Shown piece by piece: positions 148-63,933 of a DNA stretch of 64,000 bases; the first letter of the stretch is position 1, and every line of letters starts with the position of its first letter. This DNA is from a virus: the IMG/VR virus record IMGVR_UViG_3300043410_001892, positions 183,145-247,144 of that record; one strand, 5' to 3'. The translations under genes were made by a program, and so were the position numbers. A model generated the notes under the pieces. That model ran no database searches. It saw only the letters and a program-made list of their open reading frames with translations, and was not told where the DNA came from.

Positions 148-594
148 CTATTTGTTAACTCTAAGGATTCCAAAGTCTTGATCAGAAATATCAATGCCTT
201 CTGCTGCTGCAGCATTGTAACAGATATCTCTATACCAACGACCAATAATTTCATCTTCTGGATCGCCATCAAAACCATAACCTTCTTGTTTTAATTTTTC
301 AATCCAATGATCATTCCAGTCAATTTCAAAAAAACCGTTTCTAACATTGTCTGGATTAACTCTAAAACCAATTACATCTACCCATGGTTCTTTTTTTAGT
401 GTTGCTTTTTCTTTTTCACTTAATTGCGGTTTTTCAGTTTTTGGTTTAGCTTTTGGTTTAGTTTTAGCTTTTGGTTTTTTAACTTTAGGCACTGGGGGAT
501 TGCTAGTTACTACTGGTAATCCCCGACTATCAATTTGATTATCGTTAGTACCAAATATTTTGTTTATTAGTTTATCAAACATTATGTTGCCCAC
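148..594 (-). CDS. Hypothetical protein with Lys/Pro-rich basic N-terminal segment
   Basis: 148-aa ORF co-directional with and overlapping the queE-like gene. KPKAKTKPKAKPK basic repeat. No recognisable catalytic motif. Confidence 0.5.
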   Translation of the reverse strand: MGNIMFDKLINKIFGTNDNQIDSRGLPVVTSNPPVPKVKKPKAKTKPKAKPKTEKPQLSEKEKATLKKEPWVDVIGFRVNPDNVRNGFFEIDWNDHWIEKLKQEGYGFDGDPEDEIIGRWYRDICYNAAAAEGIDISDQDFGILRVNK

Positions 595-1424
595 TCATTT
601 TTAAATAACGGAACTTGCAATCGATCACTGTATCGCAGTCCGTGTTTCAGTGCTAAATCTGCCACTGCTCTATTGTTTAGATTATACACAGCTTCAACCC
701 CGCCTACTGGCATCAAATATACATGCCCATTGAACCCTGCAGCTTTATATAATTCAATTTTTTCTAATGCTTCGTTTGCATCTTCTTCTGTTGCTATTAC
801 AAATTTTAGATATACGTCACTACCTGCAAACTTATATTGTACAACTGCGTCTGGAACTATAGCTTTTTCAGCAGGTTCACCGCTTACACTTAATTTTGGA
901 CTAACTGAGAACGTTACCCATCTTTTATTATTATAATATAAGTAATCTAAAAACTCTTTAGATAGTCGTTGTGTACCATTTGTTTCAAATGTAATATTTT
1001 GCACAGTTGATAATAACGGATGATCAAGTAATTGCGGATATAGTTTTTGCCATCCAAGTAATAAGGGTTCACCGCCTGTAATGACTAAGTGAATACCTTC
1101 CCAACTATTATTAGGCAGTAATTCAATCATTCTATTTGCAATTTCATCAATAGTCATAGTTGGACTAAGATGTTTAAACTTTGGATGCCAACTTGCATAG
1201 CTATCACAACCTGTAGTAACAAGTGGTAATGAATCATATGTTGGATATTGCTCACTGTTAGCAGCAATAGCATTTGCTTGGATACTTAGTTTACCTTTTT
1301 CCATACCAAATCCTGCACAAGTAAAATTGCAGCCATACGTGCGTAAGAATATTGAAGGTACACCCATAAAGCGACCTTCGCCTTGCATAGAATAAAATAA
1401 TTCTGATACTTTAATTTGTGACAT
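582..1424 (-). CDS. queE: 7-carboxy-7-deazaguanine synthase (QueE-like radical SAM)
   Basis: N-terminal FYSMQGEG...PSIFLRTYGCNFTC and ITGGEPLL motifs typical of QueE. Sits in an operon with folE. Confidence 0.75.
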   Translation of the reverse strand: MSQIKVSELFYSMQGEGRFMGVPSIFLRTYGCNFTCAGFGMEKGKLSIQANAIAANSEQYPTYDSLPLVTTGCDSYASWHPKFKHLSPTMTIDEIANRMIELLPNNSWEGIHLVITGGEPLLLGWQKLYPQLLDHPLLSTVQNITFETNGTQRLSKEFLDYLYYNNKRWVTFSVSPKLSVSGEPAEKAIVPDAVVQYKFAGSDVYLKFVIATEEDANEALEKIELYKAAGFNGHVYLMPVGGVEAVYNLNNRAVADLALKHGLRYSDRLQVPLFKNEWAT

Positions 1425-2110: not shown

Positions 2111-2842
2111 TTACTTGTTAACAATACTCATAAATTCTGAGCGTGTTGTTGGATCGTTTTTAAATGCACCACCAAGTTTACTTGTAACAGTAGTGCTACC
2201 TGTATCTTCAACACCTCTCGCAGCCACACAATAGTGTTTAGCATCAATTACTACTGCAATATTGTCAGTGCCTAAAATATATTCTAAAGCATGAAAAACT
2301 TGTTCTGTTAGTCTTTCTTGTACTTGTGGACGTTTTGCAAAATATTCTACAACTCTGTTTATTTTACTTAGACCAAGTACAACTTTATTTGGAATGTAAC
2401 CAACAGTAGCATAACCATCAATTACTACAAAATGATGTTCGCAATTTGATTGTACGTTGACATTGCGTTCAACAACCATTTCGTTATAACTCATTTTATT
2501 TTCAATAGTTGTACACTTTGGAAATGACGCATAATCAAGACCCCAAAATATTTCATTGACAAACATTTTTGCAACACGTTTTGGTGTGTCATTTAAACTA
2601 TCATCTGTTAAATCTAATTTTAATAGCATCATAATATCTTTGAATTTTAATTCAATCATGCTAATTTGTACATCTCTTGTTAACTCTGATAATAATACTT
2701 CTGTACCGTCAGATAACATTTGAACAGTAGAAATACCATCAACTACTGCATCATTCATAGGCGTCTCTACACCTAATTTTACTAAGTATTCGTGTACTTC
2801 TTTTCCTAATACTGGATCTATTTTTAATTTATTATAACTCAT
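2111..2842 (-). CDS. folE: GTP cyclohydrolase I (FolE)
   Basis: Conserved FolE blocks: NEMVVERNV, SNCEHHFVVIDG, SKINRVVEYFAKRPQVQERLTEQ, KHYCVAARGVEDTGSTTVTS. Confidence 0.85.
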   Translation of the reverse strand: MSYNKLKIDPVLGKEVHEYLVKLGVETPMNDAVVDGISTVQMLSDGTEVLLSELTRDVQISMIELKFKDIMMLLKLDLTDDSLNDTPKRVAKMFVNEIFWGLDYASFPKCTTIENKMSYNEMVVERNVNVQSNCEHHFVVIDGYATVGYIPNKVVLGLSKINRVVEYFAKRPQVQERLTEQVFHALEYILGTDNIAVVIDAKHYCVAARGVEDTGSTTVTSKLGGAFKNDPTTRSEFMSIVNK

Positions 2843-2865
2843 GCTGGTTCCTTATGTAAGCGTAT

Positions 2866-2894
2866 ATTATAAAGTAATGTTTATTTTTTGTCAA
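2866..2894 (-). promoter_or_regulatory. Sigma70-type early promoter (TTGACA-17-TATAAT) driving the folE-queE operon
   Basis: Reverse strand reads TTGACA aaaaataaacattactt TATAAT with an exact 17-nt spacer, 24 nt upstream of the folE ATG. Confidence 0.6.
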
Positions 2895-3032
2895 GTAATT
2901 TTAGCTCATCTTCTAAGTATTCAATGTATTCAGTTAGACCTGATATCATCTTTGAATTACCTGAACTTTGATGTTTAGCTAGATCTGATTTTACTTGATT
3001 GATTTTTTCTTTCAACTCTTCTTTAGTTAAGC

Positions 3033-3350
3033 TCATTTTAATTCCGTCCTTGCTAATTCTAAAAACATTTGATATTTTTCGTAGGCTTGTTTGACAGCTG
3101 GAACTTTTTCTCTAACAAACATATCTTCGTAATATGTTTTATTCCATTCTTCACATTTTTCAGCTTTCACTATTAACTCTTCAAAACTTCGTTGGTTTAT
3201 CTTAACAGTTAGTAGTTGCTCATATCGATAATCATTGGCACTTATATAGTGTTGATCTAAACAAACTTCCCTAATTCCATATTTTCCAAATTTTTCAACT
3301 ATATTAGACATTATTTCTTCCAAAAGTCTTCCCAGGGAAACACAATCCAA
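3033..3350 (-). CDS. Hypothetical protein (105 aa)
   Basis: ORF overlapping the end of the gpt-like gene. No motifs. Confidence 0.45.
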   Translation of the reverse strand: MDCVSLGRLLEEIMSNIVEKFGKYGIREVCLDQHYISANDYRYEQLLTVKINQRSFEELIVKAEKCEEWNKTYYEDMFVREKVPAVKQAYEKYQMFLELARTELK

Positions 3351-3805
3351 GTATCTTCTTCACGTTTGTCAATTTCTTCAACAGCAAAGTCAACTTCTAC
3401 TGTACTACCTAAATTATTAAAGATTGTAGCAAACTTAACATTTTCATGCCAAACATTATCGGCCCATCTTGGATCAGTTGGTATACAATTTGATTGCCAA
3501 TCTTGCATAATCCAGTTAAATGTTTCACCTGAATCGTTTATATCATCAACAATTAAGATATTTTCAGATTCAAATGCATCGTTAGCTAACCAACAGTTAG
3601 ATTCAGTATATACATGGTCACGTAAACTAACGTGTATTACGTACATCTTAATTCCTAAGTATTGACTTAACATATTGGCGGGTGTAACCCCGCCTCTACT
3701 AATACCAATAATATATTCTGGAGTCCAACCGCTGGCATTAATTTGACGAGCAAGTTCTAAAACTGCACCTTCAAGTTGTTGCCAAGAGTAATGTACTTTT
3801 TTCAT
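3311..3805 (-). CDS. Xanthine-guanine phosphoribosyltransferase-like (Gpt-type type I PRTase)
   Basis: Collinear with E. coli Gpt: YSWQQLEGAVLELARQI, IIGISRGGVTPANML, the PRPP-binding LIVDDINDSGETF, and C-terminal DTWIVFPWED. Confidence 0.75.
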   Translation of the reverse strand: MKKVHYSWQQLEGAVLELARQINASGWTPEYIIGISRGGVTPANMLSQYLGIKMYVIHVSLRDHVYTESNCWLANDAFESENILIVDDINDSGETFNWIMQDWQSNCIPTDPRWADNVWHENVKFATIFNNLGSTVEVDFAVEEIDKREEDTWIVFPWEDFWKK

Positions 3806-4272
3806 TCTGGTTCCTTTGGTAATAAGCTATCTGCATAGCAAACTGAGTAAACTAATTTTAGATTTTCGTATGCTTTATCTAAACCTGGGTATTCTTCACA
3901 TAGTTTTCTAAAAGCATTCCATTCTGGAAACTTATCTACAAAATCTGTTCCATAACTTGGACTAACCGGACTCCAACCTCCGCCAGTTCCGGTATACACG
4001 TAATTTGAATTATTAGTAGTATTATAAAACATTGAACCAGTGTACGATCCACTAAAGGTAGAACCAGTGTAAGGACCATTAGTGTTGTTACTAATAGTAA
4101 TAGTATCACCAGCACTCATTGACGATGATATACCATAACTACCAGTTACACTCATACCAGTTAAATAAGATGACAACGTGTCTGTTGTAAATGCTGGAAT
4201 AGAAGTTGTACTGTATAATGATTCTGGAAGTGTAATTGTATCAATTGAATTTGTCATATAATTTCTCTGCAT
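3802..4272 (-). CDS. Hypothetical S/T/G-rich protein (156 aa)
   Basis: Low-complexity Ser/Thr/Gly/Tyr-rich ORF between the glycosyltransferase-like and gpt-like genes. Confidence 0.4.
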   Translation of the reverse strand: MQRNYMTNSIDTITLPESLYSTTSIPAFTTDTLSSYLTGMSVTGSYGISSSMSAGDTITISNNTNGPYTGSTFSGSYTGSMFYNTTNNSNYVYTGTGGGWSPVSPSYGTDFVDKFPEWNAFRKLCEEYPGLDKAYENLKLVYSVCYADSLLPKEPE

Positions 4273-5374
4273 TAAAAAATGCCTTGGTTAAATAATCAGC
4301 TTGTTGCTGAATATATGTTTTCATTGAATCGTAATTTTCAATATAATCGATAATTTTGTTACATAACTCAAAACTATGATCCTCATATGCTTTAAAGTCT
4401 TCTGTCCATTCTGATGGATATTTAAAATGGAACTTATACATTTCTTTATAGCTTAATCTATCTGGTACCATAGGTATAGCATCAAGCATTACTCCTTCAT
4501 AACAGCTAATACCAAGTGTTTCTTGTAAGTTTGCACTAAACACAATCTTTGCTTCGCTTAATAATGTATGATATTCATCTTTAGTTAGTTTTTCATCTTG
4601 GCAAACTACAAAATCGTATTGTGGCATTTGCTTTGCTATTGCTCTAAATATTTCAACTTGTTTCTCTGGAGCAATACGATGTGGAAAAACAATCAAATCA
4701 CGTTTTTCTTTATTTTTAAAAGGAGCTAATGTGTCTGTTAAGTATTCCATTGGCCAGCCAGTACGTACAATACTACCATCGTCATATACTTCATCCCAGT
4801 CTTCGTCGTACCATGGATTTTCACTAGGATATCCACTATTGATAACTTTGTCAAAGAACATTTTAACATGGAATTCTGTAGCAAAGTAATTATGAGTAAA
4901 TGCAGTGTATAATGCTCGTTCGGTATGTTTAACCCAAGCATCTTTGATAGCACCTAAGAAGTCATGTTCATCGTAATTACCAGCATGCCATAGTCCATGA
5001 AATTGCCAATTAAACCCCATTAAGTCATTGATGTATTTTAATTGAAGTATTGAAGTATTCCAAGCATCTGTAAATAAGAAATGATCGTCAGGTGTTGTTT
5101 TGCCTTCAAATTGCTTTAATAAGAATGTACATAATTGTGAACTTTTCCAGTAGTTAGTATCTACAAAGTTTAAGAATGCGCCTTGTGTGACTTCTGTTGA
5201 TTGACGATAACCATCTATTTGGCAAATATTAAATTTATCATTAAGATTGTCTTGTAGTTGCTGAGGTATATGAGTATGCCATTGACCAGTATAACGTGTG
5301 TCTAAAGGTTCTACAGGAAATATCCATATTGTAGGTTTCATAATGTATTCCAAGTAATTGAAAGAAAGCCCCAA
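4241..5374 (-). CDS. Putative GT-B fold glycosyltransferase (T4 alpha-glucosyltransferase-like C-terminal half)
   Basis: C-terminal half has a GT4/GT-B-like pattern: FPHRIAPEKQVEIF...AKIVFSANLQETLGISCYEGVMLDAIPMVPD. This resembles the E...LE.G..G.IPV block of T4 agt. Confidence 0.45.
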   Translation of the reverse strand: MGLSFNYLEYIMKPTIWIFPVEPLDTRYTGQWHTHIPQQLQDNLNDKFNICQIDGYRQSTEVTQGAFLNFVDTNYWKSSQLCTFLLKQFEGKTTPDDHFLFTDAWNTSILQLKYINDLMGFNWQFHGLWHAGNYDEHDFLGAIKDAWVKHTERALYTAFTHNYFATEFHVKMFFDKVINSGYPSENPWYDEDWDEVYDDGSIVRTGWPMEYLTDTLAPFKNKEKRDLIVFPHRIAPEKQVEIFRAIAKQMPQYDFVVCQDEKLTKDEYHTLLSEAKIVFSANLQETLGISCYEGVMLDAIPMVPDRLSYKEMYKFHFKYPSEWTEDFKAYEDHSFELCNKIIDYIENYDSMKTYIQQQADYLTKAFFNAEKLYDKFN

Positions 5375-5401
5375 TTGGAGCTTTCAAGTTAAAGAGGTTG
5401 A

Positions 5402-5651: not shown

Positions 5652-5861
5652 TTATTTTTTTCCGTTTCTTAATATAGTTGTATGGGTACGAAGTGAAAGT
5701 AATGTTTTTAATTCGTGCAATTCACATCTTAGTTTTGCTATTTTTGGATCGTTTTTTTTAGTATTATTGATGTAATAATATTTTTGTTCAAACAGTTTTA
5801 TCTCTTGACGCTTTTGCTCAATCTTTTTTTGTAGCATTGTTTTAGATATATAATGTTTCAT
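5652..5861 (-). CDS. Hypothetical protein (69 aa)
   Basis: Small ORF packed between neighbours. Confidence 0.35.
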   Translation of the reverse strand: MKHYISKTMLQKKIEQKRQEIKLFEQKYYYINNTKKNDPKIAKLRCELHELKTLLSLRTHTTILRNGKK

Positions 5862-6220
5862 GAATATTTAATAAATGAACCATTTTCATTATCTTCAGAT
5901 ATTTCAATCCAAATCTCTCTATCTGAATATTTCTGTGAAATAGTTTGATGTAACTCATTACTAATCATTTCACAGCTCTTATTATCTAGTGATAGTATAG
6001 CATCACTATACAATAAAGTCAACCAACGTTTAAATTGGATAAACTCAATATCTCTGTCAGCGTGTGTAACTTCAATCCAAACTTTAAAATGAAATATATG
6101 TCTATGTGGATATCCTAAGAACTCTACATCCTCTAATTTTGGATCAGTTAGAGCAGCAGGATAACAGTGTATTCCTTCTTTTGAAAATGTGACAAAAATA
6201 AATTTGCTAGTTGTTTCCAT
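5858..6220 (-). CDS. Small PTPS/T-fold-like protein (possible second QueD-like)
   Basis: 120 aa, the size of QueD. FSKEGIHCYP...LGYPHRHIFHFKV gives a His-x-His pattern reminiscent of PTPS zinc ligands. Weak. Confidence 0.3.
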   Translation of the reverse strand: METTSKFIFVTFSKEGIHCYPAALTDPKLEDVEFLGYPHRHIFHFKVWIEVTHADRDIEFIQFKRWLTLLYSDAILSLDNKSCEMISNELHQTISQKYSDREIWIEISEDNENGSFIKYS

Positions 6221-6890
6221 GTTTTTTCTTATTTTGATGTGCTAAAAGTCTAGCCTCTGACCAAGGTTTGCCTTTCTCAGGGCCGGTTTTTTTTTGTGAT
6301 TCTGCGGCTAAAATTCGTGCTTCAGACCACGGTTTACCTTTTAATGATTTACTTATTTTTTCTTTATGAATATCAGTTAACATTACACCTGTTTTTGATT
6401 TACTAATTTTTAATTTAGTTTCATTACGATGTAACTTCCCCTCCATACCTGATTTAAGAGTTCCATTTTTAATTTTAGTTTCAATAATTTTCCGTTTAGT
6501 GTCAGCTGGCAATTTTTTACCTAAATGCGATTTTGATAAGTTTTTTCGATGCTCTTCACTCTTAACTCTATTCTTCCACGATGGCGGTTTGTTATCTAAA
6601 CAAATGTTCGTTAATATGCCATTTTCTTCAAATCCAATTCTGCCGTATTTAAGAATTTCTTCAGTTTCTAATTTGTAAGCGTCGTCTTCATTAATGATAT
6701 TATCTATAACTTTTTTGATTATAGGAGGCATATTATGTTGAATTAAAAATTGTATGCGATAAAACTTATGACGATTTAACGTATTTTCTGCTGTTTCGGT
6801 TAAATGATCAAAACATCTGTTGGCTGTTCCTTTACCTATATAAAATGGTAAGTTATCTCTAGGATCTATATAATGATAAATGTAATACAT
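6207..6890 (-). CDS. Free-standing GIY-YIG homing endonuclease with NUMOD3-like repeats
   Basis: N-terminal YIYHYIDPRDNLPFYIGKGTANRCFDH matches the GIY-YIG motif. C-terminal repeated KGKPWSEAR(I/L)LA resembles NUMOD3 DNA-binding repeats, as in I-TevI/Seg enzymes. Confidence 0.85.
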   Translation of the reverse strand: MYYIYHYIDPRDNLPFYIGKGTANRCFDHLTETAENTLNRHKFYRIQFLIQHNMPPIIKKVIDNIINEDDAYKLETEEILKYGRIGFEENGILTNICLDNKPPSWKNRVKSEEHRKNLSKSHLGKKLPADTKRKIIETKIKNGTLKSGMEGKLHRNETKLKISKSKTGVMLTDIHKEKISKSLKGKPWSEARILAAESQKKTGPEKGKPWSEARLLAHQNKKKHGNN

Positions 6891-6948: not shown

Positions 6949-7476
6949 TTAACTCTTTAATGTATCGTTGTTGTAAGCATCCCAACCTGTAAACATATTA
7001 GGATTTTGTAATGTCTGTAAACTATGTGTCCAAATACCTGGATTAGTTGCATTAAATGTAACATCATCGAGTTTAATCATAGTATTAGTATTCCATTTGT
7101 GTATATTTGCAATTGGCATTCTAATTTGTGGAATAAACTTTTCATATGAGCATAGCTCAGTTTTTACATTAAAGTCATTTAATACAGTATATGGAATATC
7201 TAATGAACAAGTTTTACCTGTTTTTAAAAAATACTCAATAGTATGAGCCCAAGACATCCATGATCCGGCATTTTGTGGATTAAAGCTATGGTTTGCACCA
7301 AAGAATATATGATCTACATCGTCTTCAAGATATATCTCAATTGCTTCTATGGTTTGAATACCTACTACAAACAGTGTTTTCATACCGTATGCAGGTGTAT
7401 GTTCTACTTCATTGCCTGTAAAAAACTTTACAGGCGTTGTAATTTCGTTTTTATATGGTCTTATCATTTTTAACAC
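6949..7476 (-). CDS. Hypothetical protein (175 aa)
   Basis: ORF between the homing-endonuclease gene and dpdA. No motifs. Confidence 0.5.
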   Translation of the reverse strand: MLKMIRPYKNEITTPVKFFTGNEVEHTPAYGMKTLFVVGIQTIEAIEIYLEDDVDHIFFGANHSFNPQNAGSWMSWAHTIEYFLKTGKTCSLDIPYTVLNDFNVKTELCSYEKFIPQIRMPIANIHKWNTNTMIKLDDVTFNATNPGIWTHSLQTLQNPNMFTGWDAYNNDTLKS

Positions 7477-9109
7477 TTTCTTCTAAGTTAGTTAATACTT
7501 CTATTTGTTTTTCGGTAAACTCTTCAGAATCAACATCATCTTCGTTATCACCGAAGTCAAAATATTTATTCAATATTGTTTGATGGTTATAAATTTTAAG
7601 TCCGGTATTTCCTCTAGTACCAGGAATTGTCATCCATAGTCTATCGTATTTTTCAATTATATCTAAAGATTCTTGTTTGTTCTTAGTTGCAAATATTGAA
7701 TCAATTAGATCACGTACAATAATTGTATCATGAACTTCTTTTATTAGCATATTTGGAAATACATTATTGTCGTATGCTTGATTTGCCTCTTGTACAGCAT
7801 TCACATGGCTCCAAACATTGTGACCCATTAAAATTGCATAACTAAAACTATCCCAACTTGTTCTACCAACTTTGTTAACTTTATTAACATCGCCAAGTGT
7901 AATCCAATACTTAGGATCATTTAAGTATTTAGGGTCTTTAAATAACGCTACATGGTCAATATTATCAGCATTGACTTCTGTCCAATTAGGAACACCTTGT
8001 TTATAAATGCAAATATCTTTAATTTCTACTTGATCAATAATTGGACTAGATTTAAATACATTAAAGATTTTATCTTGAATAACTGCATCTTTAAATAATC
8101 TAGTATCCGTTGAATATTTTTTATCATCAACGCTTGGAACCATTCGATAAACCCATTTAGATCTATCTGTTAGTTCAGTATTGATGTATACTTGTCCATT
8201 TGCTGTAGCTAAAAACGGACTAGCACAATCATAACTAATTGTAAAGTTAGGATTATGATATTTTCGTACTGCTCGTTGAATATCAGTTAGCAAACAAGCC
8301 CATTCGAGCTTGCTTGTTCCTAAAAAGTGCATCCAGTCTTGTTTTCCTTGTTCTAATAAACCGTCATGTATAATAGTAATAAGTCTTCTAAGAACTAAGG
8401 ATAAATCGCACATATTCTGACCACCCATTGCCCATCCATTAAATGCTTTATCGCCATAGATGTTAGGATCACAATATTTTTTCATACGATCATACCAATC
8501 ATTTGCATCATCGTGTGTTTCGCCTTGCAGTACATTAAGGAATTTACATTTACCAGTTCTATTTTGGATAAAGTATTCATTATTGATATCTGTACCTGCT
8601 ACTGCATCAGCATATGAGTTAACACCTGTTGCCTTACGCCCAGCCGGGCTACGTGCTACCCAAGCCGGAATATCAAGACACATGCCATAATCCATTAGCT
8701 CATCCATCCAACGCAATACTTGTTCACGTTTCTTTTGTGCTTTAGGACAATTAGGATTTTTCCAATCAGCTGGCCAGACACCTTTACCAATTTGGAATCC
8801 TCCTGAGTCGCCTAATACAAAACTTGTAGTTCTATCTCTGTTACGAAACATGTCTTCACTATCGTCAAACTTGTCTAAATCTAAGTTTGCATGTCCAGCT
8901 GAATACAAGCACCATTTATAATAAAATTGCCCTTTCTCTGGTTCCAAGTAGTTAAGACTTTCTACACCTGCAGAAAAAGATGCAGGAATTCTTGCTGGAT
9001 CTACATACTGATTATATCTCTGTTTTCCAATAAACGTAGCATAAAAGCCCGACGTTGCTGGTAGAAACACAGCGTAATCATTCTGTGTTGCTGTTAGGTT
9101 CCTGTTCAT
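7451..9109 (-). CDS. dpdA: DpdA-like DNA-guanine transglycosylase (TGT superfamily)
   Basis: VLGDSGGFQIGKG matches the TGT catalytic DSGGFQ block. 552-aa TGT-sized protein co-located with folE/queE. Confidence 0.65.
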   Translation of the reverse strand: MNRNLTATQNDYAVFLPATSGFYATFIGKQRYNQYVDPARIPASFSAGVESLNYLEPEKGQFYYKWCLYSAGHANLDLDKFDDSEDMFRNRDRTTSFVLGDSGGFQIGKGVWPADWKNPNCPKAQKKREQVLRWMDELMDYGMCLDIPAWVARSPAGRKATGVNSYADAVAGTDINNEYFIQNRTGKCKFLNVLQGETHDDANDWYDRMKKYCDPNIYGDKAFNGWAMGGQNMCDLSLVLRRLITIIHDGLLEQGKQDWMHFLGTSKLEWACLLTDIQRAVRKYHNPNFTISYDCASPFLATANGQVYINTELTDRSKWVYRMVPSVDDKKYSTDTRLFKDAVIQDKIFNVFKSSPIIDQVEIKDICIYKQGVPNWTEVNADNIDHVALFKDPKYLNDPKYWITLGDVNKVNKVGRTSWDSFSYAILMGHNVWSHVNAVQEANQAYDNNVFPNMLIKEVHDTIIVRDLIDSIFATKNKQESLDIIEKYDRLWMTIPGTRGNTGLKIYNHQTILNKYFDFGDNEDDVDSEEFTEKQIEVLTNLEESVKNDKTI

Positions 9110-10280: not shown

Positions 10281-12941
10281 TTAATCAAAGTCAAAAAATA
10301 AGTTAGATAAGTTTGTTTCAGAAGTTTCAATTAGTTTCCAGTTTAGTATACCAATTAAGTTGTCTAATTTATTATCAATGATAGTTTTTTCCATTTCTCT
10401 ATGATCAAATGGTAGATCTTTAAACCATTGTGGTAATCTTAGTTCATCTACCGGGTATGCAACACTTACATAACCTAATGGATTGGGTTTAAGTTTACAT
10501 ACAATTACTTTTGCACCATCAGTAATGCTCATAGAATACTTGTCACCGTTCATACGTTTTAAAGAATTCCAGTTTGCACTTGCTCTAACATGCCCAGGCA
10601 TATTAACTTTACCAATTTTTGCCTCTTTTTCAGTATATGAAGTAATGCTGTTAGCTCGTTTAGGTGATCCTTTTTCCCATCCTGGTCTTGATTTAAATAA
10701 GGTTCTAAACTCACTAATAAAGTTTAGCACAGATTGTTCTGATTCACCGTCTAGCACCTTAGTTAGTATATCAGATAAGAAGTCTTGGATAAATTCTGGA
10801 GTATCACTACGCTTTAAATCTAAACCCATAGCTTTAATTTCACCAGTTTTACCATGTGTATCCTTACGTTTACCTTCTTTGTCGTATACTAATACTGCAT
10901 ATCGCTTTTTAGTAATAAACAATGATTTACTTCCTACGATCTCACGACCAGCTTTAATTACTTCACCGCGTGTTTTAGGACAATGAAATGCATCTAACAT
11001 AAATTGTTGGAATGTATTATTCACTTGATCACTGATTTGATCATACAACTGTACAATAGTTTCTTTAGTCCATGGAATAGTTCCAGCATCAATATCTTTT
11101 TTCAATGTATTATATGCTGAAAAGTAACAAGAGTCAGTATCACCATATATAATAGCTTTGCCTAAATGATTATATTCACCTGTAATAATTTCATTTACCT
11201 TTGCAGCCATATGTTTAGCTACTTGTCTACCAGTTAGTGTAGTAGATTGACCAATACGCTTATCAAAGAATCTACAACCTGGATTAAGAATTGCACCGTA
11301 TAAACTATTTAGGTTAATCTTCTTAACTAGTTGTCGTTTATCCCAGTATTCTTCTTCAATTTTATTACCAGAAGCAATGGCTTCTTTCAGTTTCTTCTGC
11401 ATATCTTTACGTTCTGAATACCAACGTTTAAGTAGACCTGAAATAACACCTTCTTTTTCGTATGTAAATATAGTTCCATTGGCTGACATGACCCATGGTT
11501 GATTACTTTCAAACACTAGTCTATATACTTCTGCAGCACTCAATACATTACTATCGCCGTTTTCCCAGTCAACTACGATATCAGTACCTATTTCTTCATT
11601 CATTACTGAAGTATATTCAAGTGTACCAAATAATCCTTCCCATGCAGCAGCAAATGATTTACCTTTAGCTATTTGTAAGCTAATATATTCGTCAGTTGCT
11701 ATTGGTCTTAATTGTCCTACAATAGTTTCCGGACCCATATTTAATGCTCTAATAACACTAGGATATAGTGAATTGATATCAAGTGATCCAACCCAATCGT
11801 GAATACCTTCTTTTGGATATGCAACATACGCACCGGCAGCTTGAACTGCATCTTCTCTGCGTCTATTTGGAACAACAAAACCTCTATTATGTGCTTCGTT
11901 GATAATAGCTTGCTCTGTTACTGCAACTGCGCCCATGGTTGTTTGTAATAATACAGTATTTTCATGTGCAACAGTATTAGCCAAATCGATAAACTTTAGT
12001 TTTTTATCAAGACGATCTAATAGCATAGTATCTTGTCTGTTATATTCAATGAATGTTTTAAAATCATTGTTGTATAACTGATCAAGTGTACCTTCGTATT
12101 GTGTTTTTCTATCACCTAACTCGTATTCTGCAATAGCATCGAGTCTAAAACTATGTCGTTCTTCATATGTGTACTTTTGATATAGTTGTAAACTATCTAA
12201 ATGGATACGTCCAATAAGATCATATGTTACTGCAGTTTTGCCATAGCGTTCATATTCACGTCTTTTTGGAAATTGATCAAATAAACAGAATCTGCGGGTA
12301 TCATCTTTTGATAATACTTTAGTAACACGATTTACTGTATATGGAATATCAAACCCTTCGCTATTCCAACCACTTAAAATGTCAGCATCATCGATTAGTG
12401 TAAGAAACGTATCTAATAATTCTGCTTCAGTTTTAAATAAAAAAGTATTTGGGAACTCTTTTACTTGTTCAGTGGCTTCCTCCATGGTTAATGTCTTAGG
12501 AGGAATAGCTAAACAGATAAGAGTTTCCAACCATTGTAAGTGTACAGCAATTGAAGTGATTGGCATAAATGCATCATCAGGTGTTGCATAGCCACGTTCT
12601 GGGTCAAAATCAACCTCGATATCAAAAAACGCAACATTTAACTTAGGTGCGTCATGATTGAGGTAATTTTCAGATAAATGTGTGAAAATTGGATTGATAT
12701 CAGCTTCAAACGTTTTTGAATTTGCGTGTATAGAAAGTTCTTTTCTATACTCTTTTGTATTTTTACAGACAATACGTGATACTGGATCACCGTAAATTGA
12801 TTGATATCTACCTTTTGGGTCTTTATAATATAATGTGTGTTTAACAGGTGAATCTTTAAACTCTCTTTCACCTTTTTCATTTCTTTCTACAATTTTAATG
12901 ACATCGTTACTTCTATCAAAGTATGCATCTACATAACTCAT
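10281..12941 (-). CDS. Family B DNA polymerase (T4 gp43-like)
   Basis: Exo I FDIEVD, motif A DINSLYPS, KINLNSLYGA, motif C YGDTDS. N-terminus is collinear with T4 gp43 (IVERNEKGERE). Confidence 0.95.
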   Translation of the reverse strand: MSYVDAYFDRSNDVIKIVERNEKGEREFKDSPVKHTLYYKDPKGRYQSIYGDPVSRIVCKNTKEYRKELSIHANSKTFEADINPIFTHLSENYLNHDAPKLNVAFFDIEVDFDPERGYATPDDAFMPITSIAVHLQWLETLICLAIPPKTLTMEEATEQVKEFPNTFLFKTEAELLDTFLTLIDDADILSGWNSEGFDIPYTVNRVTKVLSKDDTRRFCLFDQFPKRREYERYGKTAVTYDLIGRIHLDSLQLYQKYTYEERHSFRLDAIAEYELGDRKTQYEGTLDQLYNNDFKTFIEYNRQDTMLLDRLDKKLKFIDLANTVAHENTVLLQTTMGAVAVTEQAIINEAHNRGFVVPNRRREDAVQAAGAYVAYPKEGIHDWVGSLDINSLYPSVIRALNMGPETIVGQLRPIATDEYISLQIAKGKSFAAAWEGLFGTLEYTSVMNEEIGTDIVVDWENGDSNVLSAAEVYRLVFESNQPWVMSANGTIFTYEKEGVISGLLKRWYSERKDMQKKLKEAIASGNKIEEEYWDKRQLVKKINLNSLYGAILNPGCRFFDKRIGQSTTLTGRQVAKHMAAKVNEIITGEYNHLGKAIIYGDTDSCYFSAYNTLKKDIDAGTIPWTKETIVQLYDQISDQVNNTFQQFMLDAFHCPKTRGEVIKAGREIVGSKSLFITKKRYAVLVYDKEGKRKDTHGKTGEIKAMGLDLKRSDTPEFIQDFLSDILTKVLDGESEQSVLNFISEFRTLFKSRPGWEKGSPKRANSITSYTEKEAKIGKVNMPGHVRASANWNSLKRMNGDKYSMSITDGAKVIVCKLKPNPLGYVSVAYPVDELRLPQWFKDLPFDHREMEKTIIDNKLDNLIGILNWKLIETSETNLSNLFFDFD

Positions 12942-22154: not shown

Positions 22155-22760
22155 CTAATTAAGAATCCTATCGATTGATAACTTAATATTGCCTAAATGT
22201 AATTTAACAAATAAAAGAGTGTGTTCTCCTTTAACATATAATTGTGAGCCAGCATCATATCTATTTGGTTTTACAGATAACAACCGTTCAGTTTTTGGTT
22301 GAAGTTTAATTTTGTCATTGTTGTTAGACCATTCTATAAACTCAGGATTAAGATTAGCTACTCCACCGAGCGTAACTCTAAAATCATATGGAGTATTTGG
22401 CATGTATACCATTCCTCGTTCTAATCCATCTGGTGGAATACCAATTGAATCAACAAACCTTGGTATTAAATCTCGAATAGCAGTAATATCATTGTAATTG
22501 TTAGTATAGATAATTAACGTTGGTAAATTAACTCTTGTTGCAAAGTTTTCCATATTCATTATATGTTCATATAGAAGAGTAGTTGCGTTATAATGATCTG
22601 GATAACGAATACTATCTATTTTAGAAACCATCTTAAGTCGTTTAGCATATTTAGACTTGTCATGTCCTTTAAAGATATCGCCATTGGCGAGAGTCAATAC
22701 GATATTGTATTGAAACTCGCCTTTGTACAATTTCTTAACAGTGGTAAACTTAATTGTCAT
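22155..22760 (-). CDS. Hypothetical protein (201 aa)
   Basis: ATGA-coupled to the upstream clpA-like gene. Confidence 0.5.
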   Translation of the reverse strand: MTIKFTTVKKLYKGEFQYNIVLTLANGDIFKGHDKSKYAKRLKMVSKIDSIRYPDHYNATTLLYEHIMNMENFATRVNLPTLIIYTNNYNDITAIRDLIPRFVDSIGIPPDGLERGMVYMPNTPYDFRVTLGGVANLNPEFIEWSNNNDKIKLQPKTERLLSVKPNRYDAGSQLYVKGEHTLLFVKLHLGNIKLSIDRILN

Positions 22761-25036
22761 ACTGCTTGATTAACTGCCCGTACATGATCAAGTGTTAGTA
22801 CTGGCCCTTTAGTAATTACTTTAGGTTTTGCTGTTAATGAAATCTTGTCATCAACAACACTAATTGTTAACCAACCGCCGTTTTTAAGATCACCAAACAA
22901 CATCATTTTAGCAAGATCGCGCTTGATCTCTTTATCAATTACACGATGTAGCGGTCTAGCACCCATCTTAGGATCAAAGCCTTTTTCTAACAACCAATTA
23001 GTTGCAGTTTTGTCAACTTTAATACGTACACCTTTGTCTTTAACTTGTTCACGAACTTCATCCATAAACTTGTTAATAACTTTAACCATTGAATCTTTAC
23101 CTAATTTGCTAAAGGTAATAATACCGTCAAGTCTGTTACGGAACTCAGGAGTTAAAAACTTCTTAAGTTCTGCATCTGAATAGTCTTTTTCTTGAGTACC
23201 AAAGCCAATTTGATTCTTTTCTGCAGCTTGAGCACCAGCATTAGTGGTTAGAATTAGTACAATATGTCGACAATCTGCTTGTCTGCCGTTTGAACCTGTA
23301 ATAAAACCATTGTCCATCATTTGCAATAGTACAGTTGATACATCCGGATGTGACTTTTCAATCTCATCAAACAGCAATACTGCGTTAGGATTTTCTTGAA
23401 TTTGTGTGATCAATAACCCTGCACTGTCTTCAAAGCCAACATAACCCGGAGGACTACCAATTAATTTACTAATACTATGCTTTTCTTGATACTCAGACAT
23501 ATCAAAACGTAACAATTTAGTACTCAAGTGTTTAGCAAGTGCCTTAGCAGTTTCAGTTTTACCGCAACCTGTAGGCCCCATAAACACAAAACTACCAATT
23601 GGTTTATTTTCAGGTTTTAAACCTGCTTGTGCAACCATGATCTTATCAACAATTTCAGTAATTGCAGTGTCTTGGCCAAATACTTCTGTTTCAAGGGATT
23701 CTTGTAATGTGGCAATAGCACCGGTTTCAGTTTGCATAATTTGTTCAATAGGCATATTGATCATTTTTGCTAATTCAAACTGAATTTCAGGCTCAGATAC
23801 GATTCTGTGTTCAGCAAGTTTTAAGTTAAATCGCGAACATGCACAGTCAATTAAGTCAATAGCTTTGTCAGGTAGCTTTTTATCCGCTTGATATTTAACA
23901 GATAATTTAATTGCAGCCTGTAATGCATCGTCTTTGATTTTAAGTTTATGATGTCCTTCGTAGTATTTCTTAATACCTTTAAGAATCTGCAAAGTCATTT
24001 CTTGTGTAGGTTCATCAACAGTAATACGTTGGAATCTACGCATCAATGCACGATCTTTCTCAAAATGCTTACGATATTCATCCCATGTAGTTGACGCAAT
24101 AACTTTGATGTTACCTTTACTAAGTGCAGGTTTCATCATATTAGCCAAGTCATTAGATGAATTACCTGAAGCACCTGCACCACTAATCATGTGTGCTTCG
24201 TCGATAAACAATACGCATTTGCCTAATTTTTGTAGTGCTTTGATTACTTGTTTAAAGCGTTCTTCAAAGTCGCCTCTGTACTTAGATCCTGCTAACATTG
24301 CAGCAATATCAAGATTGTACACTGTATAATCTAATAAGAAATCTGGCACTGCTTCGTTGACAATATTATAAGCAAGCCCTTCAGCAATTGCAGTTTTACC
24401 TACACCTGGATCACCTACCATAATAATATTATTTTTACTACGACGACCTAATGCTAGTGCAATATGCTCTAACTCGTCTTCTCTACCAATAACAGGATCA
24501 ATCTTTTTATTCTTAACTTCTTCATTTAAGTTAGTAGTATAAGATTGCAACGCCTTGTTAGTTGATTGATTTTTATTATCACCTACGTCATCGCCCATGT
24601 CAGTTGAATTCTGCATGTATTCGTTGAACTTTTCTTTAGTGATATTTACTTGTGATATATAGTAAAATGCCCATGTGCGCTTTTCACCTAACATTGCTAA
24701 GAAAAAGTTAGATGGTTCTATTTTTTGCCCACCATTAAACAATACCTGTGTAAATGATCTATTCAACACACGTTCAACTGCTTGTGTTTTTTTAGGTTTA
24801 ACAACAACGTCAACTGTAGTAATTTCTTGACATTTAGTTTGTAAATGATTAAGTAATAAATTTTTCAAATAGTTTACGTCTGCCCCAACTCCTTGTAAAG
24901 CATTAGTAAATGAACTATCTTCCATAAGCATCGAGCATAGAACATGTTCTAATGTTACATACTCATGGTGCATATTTTTTGCAGAGATAATAGCTTTGTC
25001 AAAAATCTCTTGTAATTTTTCGCTTGGTTCAACCAT
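22757..25036 (-). CDS. ClpA/ClpB-family double AAA+ chaperone ATPase
   Basis: Two Walker A sites (IMVGDPGVGKTAIAEGLA and FMGPTGCGKTETAKALA), a Clp N-domain-like N-terminus, and ClpA-like length (759 aa). Confidence 0.9.
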   Translation of the reverse strand: MVEPSEKLQEIFDKAIISAKNMHHEYVTLEHVLCSMLMEDSSFTNALQGVGADVNYLKNLLLNHLQTKCQEITTVDVVVKPKKTQAVERVLNRSFTQVLFNGGQKIEPSNFFLAMLGEKRTWAFYYISQVNITKEKFNEYMQNSTDMGDDVGDNKNQSTNKALQSYTTNLNEEVKNKKIDPVIGREDELEHIALALGRRSKNNIIMVGDPGVGKTAIAEGLAYNIVNEAVPDFLLDYTVYNLDIAAMLAGSKYRGDFEERFKQVIKALQKLGKCVLFIDEAHMISGAGASGNSSNDLANMMKPALSKGNIKVIASTTWDEYRKHFEKDRALMRRFQRITVDEPTQEMTLQILKGIKKYYEGHHKLKIKDDALQAAIKLSVKYQADKKLPDKAIDLIDCACSRFNLKLAEHRIVSEPEIQFELAKMINMPIEQIMQTETGAIATLQESLETEVFGQDTAITEIVDKIMVAQAGLKPENKPIGSFVFMGPTGCGKTETAKALAKHLSTKLLRFDMSEYQEKHSISKLIGSPPGYVGFEDSAGLLITQIQENPNAVLLFDEIEKSHPDVSTVLLQMMDNGFITGSNGRQADCRHIVLILTTNAGAQAAEKNQIGFGTQEKDYSDAELKKFLTPEFRNRLDGIITFSKLGKDSMVKVINKFMDEVREQVKDKGVRIKVDKTATNWLLEKGFDPKMGARPLHRVIDKEIKRDLAKMMLFGDLKNGGWLTISVVDDKISLTAKPKVITKGPVLTLDHVRAVNQAV

Positions 25037-25070: not shown

Positions 25071-25099
25071 ATTATAAAGTATTTTAATTATAAAGTCAA
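25071..25099 (-). promoter_or_regulatory. Sigma70-type early promoter (TTGACT-17-TATAAT) upstream of the clpA-like gene
   Basis: Reverse strand reads TTGACT ttataattaaaatactt TATAAT, 34 nt upstream of the ATG. Confidence 0.55.
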
Positions 25100-25947
25100 A
25101 TAATTTGACTGTTTATTTGTTGCAATTGTGCCACCAATTCTGGTTTGGTAACTGCAGGGGTTTTTATTTTTACAACAGTAACAAATCTTCCAATCTGTCT
25201 ATTGTGTAAATTAGTAAACCCGCCGTGCGCTTTTGCATATTCTGTACCAGGTTGTACTCCTGGTTTAATAGTAATGTTATGTTTTTCACCTATTAAGTTG
25301 GTAACTTCTTTAACACAACCAATCATTGCTTCAATTGGTGAAATTTCAATTGAAGTAAATATGTCATTACCTTCGCGTCTAAAATTAGGATCAGGTATTA
25401 CATTTATAGTTACATTTAAATTACCACGTGGAACACCCGGCTGTGAGTTATCTCCTAAGCCGTCATATCTAATAGTATCTCCGTTATCAATACCTGCAGG
25501 TACGTTAATTACAACATGCTGTGGTTCTCCGCTAGGCAAGTTAATATTAGCATCTATTTGTTTTCCTTTAAATGTATCTGCTAATGTGACTTGAATTTGT
25601 AAATTTAAATCTCGGTTACGGCGACCTTGTTGGAATCCATGTGCAAAGTGTTGTCCAAAAATATCATGCATATTAAACTGGAAGCCTCCACCGAAACTGT
25701 TACTAAATGGTCCTCCTCCACCAAATCCACCAAATCCACCAAATGGATTTCCATTTTGTTGCATATCATATTCTTGGCGTTTTTGTGGATCACTTAATGT
25801 ATCATATGCTACTGAAATATCTTTAAATGTAGCTTGGTCTCCACCTTTGTCGGGATGATGTTTATTTGCTAATGAACGATATGCTTTTTTAATATCGTCT
25901 TGTGATGCATCTTTTGATACACCTAATTTTGAATAAAAGTCTGTCAT
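25096..25947 (-). CDS. DnaJ-like J-domain co-chaperone
   Basis: N-terminal J-domain YSKLGVSKDASQDDIKKAYRSLANKHHPDK with the HPD motif, followed by a Gly/Phe-rich linker (GGFGGFGGGGPF). No CxxCxGxG zinc finger seen. Confidence 0.8.
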   Translation of the reverse strand: MTDFYSKLGVSKDASQDDIKKAYRSLANKHHPDKGGDQATFKDISVAYDTLSDPQKRQEYDMQQNGNPFGGFGGFGGGGPFSNSFGGGFQFNMHDIFGQHFAHGFQQGRRNRDLNLQIQVTLADTFKGKQIDANINLPSGEPQHVVINVPAGIDNGDTIRYDGLGDNSQPGVPRGNLNVTINVIPDPNFRREGNDIFTSIEISPIEAMIGCVKEVTNLIGEKHNITIKPGVQPGTEYAKAHGGFTNLHNRQIGRFVTVVKIKTPAVTKPELVAQLQQINSQII

Positions 25948-30167: not shown

Positions 30168-30899
30168 ATGGGACACAAACGAGTACAAAAACGTTTTACA
30201 TCACACGTCAACATAGTAGAATTTCAACAACCAAAACAAATTAAACCTAAACGCTACAGTGTATCTTTAAATCCTCGCAACCAAAGTCAAAAAGAGTATG
30301 TTGCGATGTTACAAGATGAATCTACTAGTATTGTTTTTGCAATTGGTCCGGCTGGAACAGGGAAAACGATGTTAGCTGTGCAACAAGGTATTAAATTGTT
30401 TCAAGAGGGAGTTATAGATAAAATTATTGTGACGAGACCGGCAGTGTCGGTAGATGAAGAATTGGGATTCTTACCAGGAACTTTAAATGAAAAGATGGCT
30501 CCTTGGACAAGACCTATTTTTGATGTATTCGGAGAGTATTACCATCAGACAGATATTGCAAAGTTTTTGGCTGAAGGTGAGATTGAGATTAGCCCACTAA
30601 GCTATATGAGAGGTAGGACATTTAAGAATGCTTATATCATTTTTGATGAGGCGCAGAATACAACGCCAAATCAAATGAAAATGGCTCTTACCCGCTTAGG
30701 AGAAAATTCGAGAATGGTTGTAACAGGGGATTTAGCACAAGCTGATCGCTTGCATGACAATGGATTATTAGAATTTATTGATAGATTAGACAATAATAAG
30801 ACAGCGTTAAGCCATATTGATGTTGCGTATTTTACGCATAAAGATATTGAACGTCATAGTGCAGTTAAGGAGGTATTAGCACTCTACGGGGAAAGTTAG
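30168..30899 (+). CDS. phoH: PhoH-like ATPase
   Basis: Walker A IGPAGTGKTMLAV, PhoH blocks IVTRPAVSVDEELGFLPG and IIFDEAQN. AGGAG RBS. Confidence 0.9.
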   Translation: MGHKRVQKRFTSHVNIVEFQQPKQIKPKRYSVSLNPRNQSQKEYVAMLQDESTSIVFAIGPAGTGKTMLAVQQGIKLFQEGVIDKIIVTRPAVSVDEELGFLPGTLNEKMAPWTRPIFDVFGEYYHQTDIAKFLAEGEIEISPLSYMRGRTFKNAYIIFDEAQNTTPNQMKMALTRLGENSRMVVTGDLAQADRLHDNGLLEFIDRLDNNKTALSHIDVAYFTHKDIERHSAVKEVLALYGES

Positions 30900-31140: not shown

Positions 31141-31568
31141 AGTTTTTCAACAGTTATACCACATTTTTCTAAAAACTCAAGTCCAGCAGTACTACGATAA
31201 GTTTCTGTATAGAACACTTTAATAATGCCGGACTGATATATCCCTTTAGCACACTCTATACACGGAGCATGTGTAATAAACATAAAAGCACCTTTACCTG
31301 ATTCAGTCGAACTAGCTAATTTCATTAGCGCATTCATTTCTGCATGGATGACTTCTGGTTTGGTTTTAAGATATGAACCACCATCTTGGATAATATCCAT
31401 TTCTACTTCGCAAACATTATTCCAACCGGTAGGTGTACCGTTGTAGCCAAGACTAATAATACGATCATCTTTAACTACAACCGCACCAACTTTAAGCTTA
31501 ACTGCGGAACTAAGTTCCGCAAATGTATAAGCCGTTTTCATAAAAGCTTGTTTAAACTTAGCTTTCAT
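31137..31568 (-). CDS. dCMP deaminase (cytidine/deoxycytidylate deaminase family)
   Basis: Zinc-binding HAEMNAL and PCIECAKGI motifs. Size fits T4 cd-like enzymes. Confidence 0.8.
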   Translation of the reverse strand: MKAKFKQAFMKTAYTFAELSSAVKLKVGAVVVKDDRIISLGYNGTPTGWNNVCEVEMDIIQDGGSYLKTKPEVIHAEMNALMKLASSTESGKGAFMFITHAPCIECAKGIYQSGIIKVFYTETYRSTAGLEFLEKCGITVEKL

Positions 31569-62354: not shown

Positions 62355-62549
62355 TCATTCATTTTTAATGTCTTTGGTTAGGGTTGGTGTAACACATCCG
62401 ACCGGTTTAGGTCGGATGTATGGTTCTTTTATAAACTCTACGTGGCAATCCACGCATATAAACATATCCCTAGATGTTATAATTAACATCCCAGCGCCGC
62501 AACGCGGACACTGGTTTCCTGTTACTTCTTCATATGACTGTGTAGTCAT
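62355..62549 (-). CDS. Small zinc-ribbon protein (64 aa)
   Basis: CPRCGAG...CVDCH four-Cys arrangement. Overlaps the ligase gene end by 4 nt. Confidence 0.4.
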   Translation of the reverse strand: MTTQSYEEVTGNQCPRCGAGMLIITSRDMFICVDCHVEFIKEPYIRPKPVGCVTPTLTKDIKNE

Positions 62550-63904: not shown

Positions 63905-63933
63905 ATACACTCCTGTTTAATTAAAAAAAATAT

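Follow-up and report, generated by a model that had tools for sequence, protein, structure and literature searches.

A gene for a Gpt-like purine phosphoribosyltransferase (PRTase) lies inside a 7-deazaguanine DNA-modification cluster in a 64,000-nucleotide stretch of viral DNA (IMG/VR record IMGVR_UViG_3300043410_001892, positions 183,145 to 247,144; the whole of this stretch is referred to here as the window). From its distribution among phages, the PRTase is a conserved accessory that is specific to deazaguanine phages and not a core step of their pathway. Because it is conserved, occurs only in deazaguanine phages and belongs to the gene set of each of the three phages measured as fully substituted, it is a concrete candidate for a missing component of complete guanine replacement. 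We tentatively propose, with a confidence a little short of even, that the PRTase recycles the guanine expelled from DNA by a transglycosylase to GMP and then to GTP for FolE. The gene consists of a single open reading frame (ORF):

3311 to 3805, minus strand: Gpt-like (XGPRT/HGXPRT-type) PRTase, ATG start, 164 aa

This ORF is a genuine gene, and metagenomes hold one relative of 98% identity along with hundreds at 50-87% identity; a megablast search of positions 2800-5400 against phages returned zero matches. The protein matched the Pfam family PF00156 (Pribosyltran) over residues 8-158 with 56.1 bits (cut-off 26.3; E = 3.6e-15) and PHROG 8995, 'phosphoribosyl transferase' (E = 8.5e-21). Its top NCBIfam match was the Gpt equivalog model NF006613, with residues 2-100 aligned, and the score of 60.1 bits is below the curated equivalog cut-off of 138 bits. 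The phosphoribosyl pyrophosphate (PRPP) loop, ILIVDDINDSGET, occupies residues 83-95 and comprises a hydrophobic strand, two acidic residues and the motif [ST]-G-x-T; the loop string cited in the original prediction, LIVDDINDSGETF, corresponds to residues 84-96. Alignment placed the Gpt-like N-terminal block ISRGG in the protein and paired its C-terminal block, DTWIVFPWED, with DTWIEQPWD of Escherichia coli, the stacking residue Trp153 lying inside DTWIVFPWE. The alignment also revealed that the window's clade carries an insertion of ~20 residues following the PRPP loop.

An AlphaFold model of the PRTase, built with 42 relatives as input, had a predicted local distance difference test score (pLDDT) of 93.6 and a predicted template modeling score (pTM) of 0.90, and a Foldseek search with this model gave 248 PDB matches at E ≤ 0.001. 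Among the best 50 of these, nearly all were 6-oxopurine phosphoribosyltransferases (PRTs) of the XGPRT/HGXPRT kind; the exceptions were an APRT from S. solfataricus, an enzyme derived from 6-oxopurine-type PRTs, and a ppGpp-bound PRT-fold protein from Neisseria (5vog). The nearest folds were S. solfataricus HGXPRT, the P. horikoshii purine PRT, H. pylori XGHPRT and the XGPRTs of E. coli and Yersinia, with 5bqo, 4z1o, 1vdm, 7kl6, 1a95-98, 1nul and 6kp5 as the nearest solved structures, and a PDB sequence search recovered the same set. The window protein shares with E. coli Gpt and the archaeal HGXPRTs (S. solfataricus GpT-2, P. horikoshii PH0095) the fold (TM-scores of 0.6-0.79, depending on normalization), the size class, the RGG motif, the D-D-x-x-D-[ST]-G-x-T loop and the D-x-W-I-x-x-P-W block with its stacking Trp. 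Unlike them, it is the product of a phage gene in a deazaguanine DNA-modification cluster, is only 25-29% identical to them, carries the ~20-residue insertion and has Asn in place of E. coli Lys115. The description of the gene as a clear Gpt homologue in the original prediction therefore holds for fold, PRPP loop and terminal blocks but is overstated in view of the insertion, the Asn and the 60 bits against a cut-off of 138; sequence and model together point to a type I phosphoribosyltransferase that is Gpt-like but no Gpt equivalog.

Residues expected in the active site are strongly conserved across 246 members of the PRTase family. D87, D88 and D91 (E. coli D88, D89 and D92), which form the D-D-x-x-D signature, are invariant (246/246), as is G38 (246/246), and T95 (245/246), R37 (244/246), G39 (240/246) and the stacking Trp153 (E. 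coli W134; 244/246) are nearly so; in the copy of phage PA5oct, both the stacking Trp and the C-terminal motif are gone. N131 stands at the position of E. coli Gpt K115, which we take to be a contact to O6, and family members have N (173), K (44) or R (25) there. The third Asp of the PRPP loop in 6-oxopurine PRTs partners N7 of the purine (D137 in human HGPRT). This Asp is constant among lineages that carry different groups at C7 of the final base, namely H (phiST), carboxamide (CP220) and formylaminomethyl (immuto). Because the third Asp is invariant although the final bases differ at C7, a shared substrate is indicated, and guanine is the only substrate common to all of these lineages. The best reading of the gene is that its product, a 6-oxopurine phosphoribosyltransferase of the XGPRT/HGXPRT type, is active, as predicted from the conserved residues and the modeled fold, and that it was recruited to the phage 7-deazaguanine modification module.

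We searched 50,697 phage records by tblastn (E ≤ 1) with the window PRTase, and also with E. coli Gpt as query. The window PRTase matched 42 records. Genuine phage carriers were the Campylobacter Firehammervirus phages (CP220 group), the Cellulophaga phiST group, the Flavobacterium immuto phages, PA5oct-like Pseudomonas jumbo phages, the Brevundimonas phages MaInes and StAshley, and the Synechococcus phage BUCT-ZZ01. The few remaining records were host DNA or mis-assigned, and the Gpt query added no genuine phage case from the same collection. One such record, MT835497.1 ('Bacteriophage sp.', INPHARED; locus L059), was rejected as a phage case since it looks like a high-G+C bacterial chromosome with a cellular PRTase; translations of its ORFs read as PPK2-like, phosphoketolase-like, phosphotransferase system (PTS) and DeoR-like proteins. 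A hidden Markov model (HMM) of the window-clade PRTase matched the copies of CP220, phiST (CGPG_00045), immuto_2-6A (gp211), MaInes, BUCT-ZZ01 and PA5oct (EST35_0321) with E-values from 3e-45 to 6e-13. These phage PRTs belong to the same family and have the same association with deazaguanine genes, but the window protein is only 22-34% identical to them and has the clade insertion, which they lack; they also go with other transglycosylase types (DpdA3, against a 552-aa type in the window) and other final bases. Gene orders around the phage copies (PRT, the PRTase gene; RNR, ribonucleotide reductase; dNMP, deoxynucleoside monophosphate; GT, glycosyltransferase; TGT, tRNA-guanine transglycosylase) were as follows:

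immuto_2-6A: QueD-x-QueE-x-x-PRT-FolE-…-DpdA3-x-DpdN-kinase-QueF
MaInes: QueC-QueD-QueE-x-DpdA3-like-PolA-…-RNR-dNMP kinase-FolE-PRT
BUCT-ZZ01: QueE-PRT-x-QueD-FolE-GT1-like-TGT-like-DpdL-GT-like
PA5oct: PolB-p246-x-DpdA-like-GT-like-DpdL-x-x-PRT-QueE
CP220: PRT-x-QueE
phiST: PRT ~17 kb from the deazaguanine cluster, beside RNR

The same association was seen in metagenomic sequences. All 46 IMG/VR loci with the conserved module of the window's clade carried the PRTase, and those of sufficient length read PolB, p246, DpdA-like, p175, DpdL, p82, GT-like, (p156), PRTase, FolE, QueE, p148. Four contigs with a PRTase that were labeled as metagenome-assembled genomes in a genome collection proved to be phage contigs. 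A profile of the distant copies retrieved four more metagenomic lineages, in all of which the PRTase lay within ~3 kb of FolE; one of the four was a T4-like contig with the order QueE-PRT-QueD-FolE-…-DpdL-DpdA3. Altogether, at least ten unrelated genome contexts had the PRTase beside FolE, QueD or QueE. Its closest relatives from cells, at 33-39% identity, belong to the chromosomes of Sphingomonadales and marine Bacteroidetes and have no deazaguanine genes around them. We considered whether each phage had captured the gene separately from its own host lineage and found no support for this, as a neighbor-joining tree of poor resolution put phage copies nearest to phage copies.

Several smaller features of these loci were also recorded. 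Two metagenomic lineages had an NAD-dependent epimerase/dehydratase-like gene and a gene for a ~180-aa protein directly upstream of the PRTase (L064, 4296-5860; L065, 8438-9969), PA5oct had a truncated epimerase-like ORF in the corresponding spot (L050, 14450-14968), and BUCT-ZZ01 had a second, GT1-like gene. Sugar chemistry seems, from these gene contents, to be part of PRTase-bearing deazaguanine clusters. CP220 encodes an HD/P-loop protein upstream of DpdA3.

The occurrence of the PRTase was then compared with that of the other modification genes. Replacement of 100% of dG has been measured in three phages, CP220, phiST and immuto_2-6A (PMC10516641, Table 1, Discussion), and all three encode the PRTase, whereas tblastn found no PRTase match in the partial-replacement phages of our collection (Rosebush, phi-Grn1, phiSM and HVTV-1). 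A TGT-like gene was present in every PRTase phage in which one was sought: DpdA3 accompanied the PRTase in CP220, immuto, phiST, MaInes and locus L066, a 552-aa DpdA-like gene of the window type accompanied it in PA5oct and in those window-clade loci long enough to include the gene, and the candidate in BUCT-ZZ01 was a 416-aa protein bearing DSGGLQ. Among the 50,697 records we found no PRTase phage without deazaguanine synthesis genes. The original prediction had stated that a purine PRTase is not a normal part of known deazaguanine phage clusters, which is borne out for DpdA1 and DpdA2 phages but not for the complete-replacement phages, the PA5oct-like phages, the Brevundimonas phages or BUCT-ZZ01. 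It had also named a wide spread of the gene in relatives lacking dpdA as evidence against the link; among phages, no PRTase occurred without a TGT-like gene where one was sought, a result that does not refute the link, and the reverse did occur.

Strict co-variation with DpdL, with the GT-like gene or with the 552-aa DpdA type was rejected. The last of these is encoded without a PRTase by Vibrio phage 2.275.O and Phosso, and ACP17, Phosso, Xanthomonas X1/BUDD and BCSR5 have both DpdL and the GT-like gene but no PRTase. About ten phage lineages carry DpdL and lack the PRTase, among them RHph_I1_18 and others that have DpdL alone. The DpdA-like family comprises at least 7443 metagenome proteins at E ≤ 1e-5, as opposed to 679 for the PRTase, but we rejected the idea that many DpdA phages lack the PRTase: both of the two metagenome contigs picked via their DpdA-like protein carried it, and the gap probably reflects search sensitivity. 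The accessory status given above follows from the occurrence of DpdA, DpdL and GT-like genes without the PRTase. That a TGT-like gene accompanied the PRTase wherever one was sought, but not the reverse, would be expected if the PRTase uses the product of the transglycosylase.

As the original prediction held, the PRTase of the window is embedded in a deazaguanine cluster; FolE, QueE, DpdL and a TGT-fold DpdA-like gene lie around it. All genes from PolB (10281-12941) down to 148 lie on the minus strand. The pathway genes and the immediate surroundings of the PRTase were assigned as follows:

582 to 1424, minus strand: QueE (7-carboxy-7-deazaguanine synthase), with a Pfam radical SAM match and 51% identity to the annotated QueE of BUCT-ZZ01
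2111 to 2842, minus strand: FolE (GTP cyclohydrolase I), Pfam PF01227, 200.8 bits
2894 to 2866, minus strand: predicted promoter directly upstream of folE, a perfect match to the sigma-70 consensus TTGACA-17-TATAAT and a consensus match only
3033 to 3311, minus strand: small ORF of ~92 aa from its ATG, function unassigned, no Pfam or PHROG match
3802 to 4272, minus strand: 156-aa ORF (p156), function unassigned, low-complexity N-terminus and conserved C-terminus, no Pfam or PHROG match
4241 to 5341, minus strand: GT-B-like gene ('GT377'), with a weak Pfam Glyco_transf match and a weak profile match to WlaC (6eji)
5364 to 5385, minus strand: terminator-like hairpin just upstream of the GT-like gene, a consensus match only
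5858 to 6220, minus strand: DpdL, a QueD paralogue and proposed 7-carboxy-7-deazaguanine (CDG) decarboxylase, LGYPHRHIF (LxxxHRHxF), PHROG 17812
7451 to 9109, minus strand: DpdA-like transglycosylase of the TGT superfamily, 552 aa, with DSGGFQ, GWAMGG, HFLG and YDCASPF (the Joint Genome Institute (JGI) gene call starts at 9070)
38867 to 39409, plus strand: true QueD (6-carboxy-tetrahydropterin synthase), Pfam PF01242, 99.5 bits, PHROG 2389 (QueD-like)

The start of the PRTase gene overlaps the stop of the 156-aa ORF (ATGA, 3802-3805), relatives of which occupy the same position in related loci, and its stop overlaps the ATG of the 3033-3311 ORF (TAATG, 3309-3313). The gene lies between the folE promoter and the GT-like gene, as had been stated, with one small ORF on the GT side and two on the promoter side. 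Because a promoter consensus stands upstream of folE and a hairpin upstream of the GT-like gene, the PRTase is predicted, by consensus matches only, to lie within a unit of GT-like gene, p156, PRTase and small ORF. QueE of the window matched 194 phage records. The true QueD is ~30 kb away from the remaining pathway genes and on the opposite strand.

From the presence of FolE, QueE, QueD, DpdL and a TGT-fold gene, with no QueC seen within the 64 kb of the window (itself a fragment from a contig at least 372 kb long), the gene set is predicted to be of the DpdL type of phage DNA modification, which yields 7-deazaguanine (DG; 2'-deoxy-7-deazaguanosine, dDG, in DNA). The LxxxHRHxF signature separates DpdL from QueD (Cui et al. 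2023, PMC10516641, section 16), and an HMM of the window DpdL family matched the DpdL of phiST (CGPG_00067, 6e-23) and not its QueD. The window resembles the DpdL-type dDG systems (Cui et al. 2023) in FolE, QueD, QueE, the DpdL signature, the lack of QueC and a TGT-like gene; it differs in that its transglycosylase is 552 aa long and has no detectable sequence match to DpdA3. The AlphaFold model of this DpdA-like protein was of moderate quality (pLDDT 64.7), and the best 50 Foldseek matches were all tRNA-guanine transglycosylases (top E = 1.7e-5). D101 and D294 are invariant in its family, for which neither the protein nor the family gave a Pfam, NCBIfam or PDB sequence match. A comparison with DpdA3 by hhalign gave a probability of only 6.8%, and no DpdA subfamily was assigned.

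Cultured-phage relatives of the 552-aa DpdA type were found only in PA5oct-like phages, Phosso and Vibrio phage 2.275.O. The last of these (L057, 16898-19983) has no PRTase and encodes this DpdA type together with QueF, a YhhQ-like putative vitamin/queuosine-precursor transporter, QueC and a separate amidotransferase-like gene, which suggests that it is another downstream chemistry on the same transglycosylase type. HMM matches to the GT-like gene were found in PA5oct and BUCT-ZZ01. By tblastn, the GT-like gene directly adjoins DpdL in ACP17 (84815-86176) and Phosso (150437-151881), and both genes are present in PA5oct, Xanthomonas X1/BUDD and Burkholderia BCSR5. The GT-like gene is therefore predicted to be a companion of DpdL and not of the PRTase. 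The published DpdL scheme contains neither a PRTase nor a GT-like partner of DpdL (Cui et al. 2023, PMC10516641), and the GT-like gene might be a missing factor in the failed reconstitution of DpdL.

A scheme can be drawn for guanine recycling in which guanine as the substrate, coupling of the PRTase to the transglycosylase and the argument from flux are what we infer. FolE catalyzes the initial, GTP-consuming step in deazaguanine synthesis. The TGT-fold DpdA-like enzyme would exchange guanine in DNA for a 7-deazaguanine base, here probably 7-deazaguanine itself, made via FolE, QueD, QueE and DpdL, so that each exchange would free one guanine and use one base costing one GTP. The PRTase would combine the freed guanine with PRPP to give GMP, and host kinases would convert GMP to GTP, the substrate of FolE. 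Recycling would also clear guanine, which is poorly soluble and would compete with the deaza base for the transglycosylase, and it would cut by half what heavy or complete replacement costs in guanine nucleotides. For a genome of at least 372 kb with 34.4% G+C, or ~128,000 G, we estimate that a burst of 50 would release ~6.4 million guanines, corresponding to ~10 mM in 1 fL.

Several observations weigh against guanine recycling. Complete base replacement in phage DNA is usually pre-replicative and takes place in the nucleotide pool, which would fit better with phosphoribosylation of the deaza base itself. Most hosts own purine PRTs, and the need for a phage copy is an assumption. 7-Deazaguanines are isosteric with guanine, so the conserved Gpt-like pocket would be compatible with them as well and does not exclude them; N131 and the ~20-residue insertion of the clade suggest that the specificity of the PRTase may differ from that of Gpt, and the link to 100% replacement comes from three measured phages. 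As the main rival reading, and a serious one, we consider it possible, if rather unlikely, that the PRTase is a TubE/ToyH-like 7-deazapurine phosphoribosyltransferase, which would convert PRPP and CDG (or 7-deazaguanine, 7-amido-7-deazaguanine (ADG), preQ0 or preQ1, depending on the lineage) to a 7-deaza-GMP analogue. DpdL would then decarboxylate at the nucleotide level, and kinases, ribonucleotide reductase and the phage polymerase would place the analogue in DNA before or during replication, with dGTP cleared by a MazG- or HD-type enzyme and the TGT-like enzyme serving as a back-up or proofreader or acting on nucleotides. TubE (PF00156, 194 aa) provides a precedent, as it acts on CDG and PRPP ahead of a decarboxylase and is encoded in a cluster with FolE, QueD and QueE and without QueC (PMC6112128; bioRxiv 10.64898/2026.04.15.718813), and the window follows the same gene logic with FolE, QueD, QueE, DpdL and no QueC seen. 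Further support comes from the neighbors of DpdA3 and of the PRTase: a phrog_2107 'thymidylate kinase' adjoins DpdA3 in CP220 (L054, 5995-7355) and immuto (L052, 14138-16142); in phiST (L053, 7601-8861) an AAA_18 P-loop kinase-like protein adjoins DpdA3, a MazG-like gene is also present and the PRTase stands beside RNR; and MaInes (L003, 8635-10468) has RNR and a dNMP kinase beside FolE-PRT. Such kinase-like neighbors of DpdA3 in unrelated phages are hints of nucleotide-level steps in DpdA3 systems. The window likewise encodes a MazG-like gene, and ADG nucleoside was found within the cytoplasm of CP220-infected cells, as cited by Cui et al. 2023 (PMC10516641). DpdL and DpdA in E. coli gave no dDG, and the authors suspected missing enzymes (Cui et al. 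2023, PMC10516641), a failure that would also be consistent with a nucleotide-level route, as would the presence of the PRTase in all three phages with 100% replacement. It is conceivable, though we would not expect it, that the PRTase is the missing enzyme of DpdL/DpdA3-type systems and that full replacement of G is mainly nucleotide-level, from base to 7-deaza-GMP analogue, deoxynucleoside triphosphate (dNTP) and polymerase.

Other data argue against this nucleotide-level route. Every PRTase phage inspected has a TGT-like gene, and an independent nucleotide route would need none; the Streptomyces TubE/ToyH clusters are without a transglycosylase (bioRxiv 10.64898/2026.04.15.718813), whereas the window, with its TGT-fold gene at 7451-9109, departs from the TubE/ToyH pattern of a cluster having no nucleic-acid insertion enzyme. 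These clusters, which make the CDG/preQ0 phosphoribosyltransferases of tubercidin and toyocamycin synthesis, are likened to the window by genes and description and not by sequence: PF00156, FolE/QueD/QueE, no QueC and a (proposed) decarboxylase are shared, but their product is a free nucleoside antibiotic and their decarboxylase is of the UbiD type and not a QueD paralogue. The roughly ten lineages with DpdL and no PRTase imply that the PRTase is no core step of the DG route, and the N7-partner Asp and other Gpt-like site residues are invariant across lineages that differ at C7. TubE rejects 7-deazaguanine as a substrate (PMC6112128), which also speaks against a TubE-like role here, and neither a kinase nor a dGTPase was found within the window's own module. 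Two further explanations were weighed. The PRTase could be a generic auxiliary enzyme that only boosts nucleotide supply by salvaging purines when host nucleic acids are degraded, and it would then stand in the cluster incidentally; purine salvage is the default function of the family, close cellular relatives have ordinary chromosomal contexts and the distribution among phages is sporadic, but genuine phage copies were found only in deazaguanine phages among the 50,697 records, where such a gene would be expected elsewhere as well, and the repeated position beside FolE, QueD or QueE makes incidental placement improbable. We think it very improbable that the PRTase is a non-catalytic or regulatory PRT-fold protein, acting for example as a sensor of nucleotides or (p)ppGpp or as a structural partner for the modification enzymes: the ppGpp-bound protein 5vog is among its structural neighbors and the PA5oct copy lacks the stacking Trp and the C-terminal motif, but the 246 members show next to no variation in the PRPP loop, the RGG motif and the stacking Trp, which argues for retained catalysis. 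The readings that survive are the two offered in the original prediction, guanine salvage and a 7-deazapurine nucleotide route.

Our literature searches returned nothing that links a PRTase to deazaguanine DNA, Crippen et al. 2019 (PMC6854489) and the supplements of Cui et al. 2023 being outside their reach, and the main text of the latter (PMC10516641) does not mention a PRTase. Labels do exist in GenBank, where the record of Campylobacter phage F379 has a 'purine phosphoribosyltransferase / queuosine biosynthesis protein'. As far as we can see, the systematic attachment of a PRTase to complete-replacement deazaguanine systems is undescribed. In the published model, all phage 7-deazaguanine DNA modification is post-replicative base exchange, and reconstitution of DpdA3 and DpdL in E. 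coli failed. The PRTase turns the open mechanistic question of full replacement into a testable one. If it recycles guanine, a closed loop from guanine to GTP to deazaguanine would explain how the exchange can reach completion; if the deaza base is what it phosphoribosylates, the pathway would be pre-replicative and the published post-replicative conclusion would be overturned. The answer is also relevant to engineering fully 7-deaza-G DNA in vivo.

Three further genes of the window were noted:

6207 to 6890, minus strand: GIY-YIG/NUMOD3 homing-endonuclease-like gene, inserted between DpdL and the 175-aa ORF
6949 to 7476, minus strand: 175-aa ORF (p175), function unassigned, conserved across the clade together with the DpdA-like gene, whose 3' end it overlaps
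61774 to 62274, minus strand: MazG-like nucleotide pyrophosphohydrolase, Pfam PF01503, 52.5 bits, PHROG 671, relevant to the nucleotide-level reading only

The 175-aa ORF had no Pfam match, also when searched as a family profile, and no PDB sequence match; its conservation beside the DpdA-like gene suggests that it may encode a partner subunit of that protein. The 156-aa, 105-aa and 175-aa ORFs and the DpdA-like gene were all without a Pfam, PHROG or NCBIfam match. Similarity between the window MazG and the MazG-like gene in the deazaguanine cluster of phiST was undetectable, and the window gene adjoins an ATP-dependent DNA ligase (62546-63910, minus strand). NUMOD3 genes occupy other positions of the module in relatives. 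Elsewhere, the window encodes chaperones, all on the minus strand (ClpB-like, 22757-25036; DnaJ-like, 25096-25947; Cpn10-like, 33688-34071), as well as PhoH (30168-30899), a Band 7/SPFH protein (31568-32419) and two giant ORFs on the plus strand, of 4041 aa (40195-52320) and 1788 aa (54386-59752).

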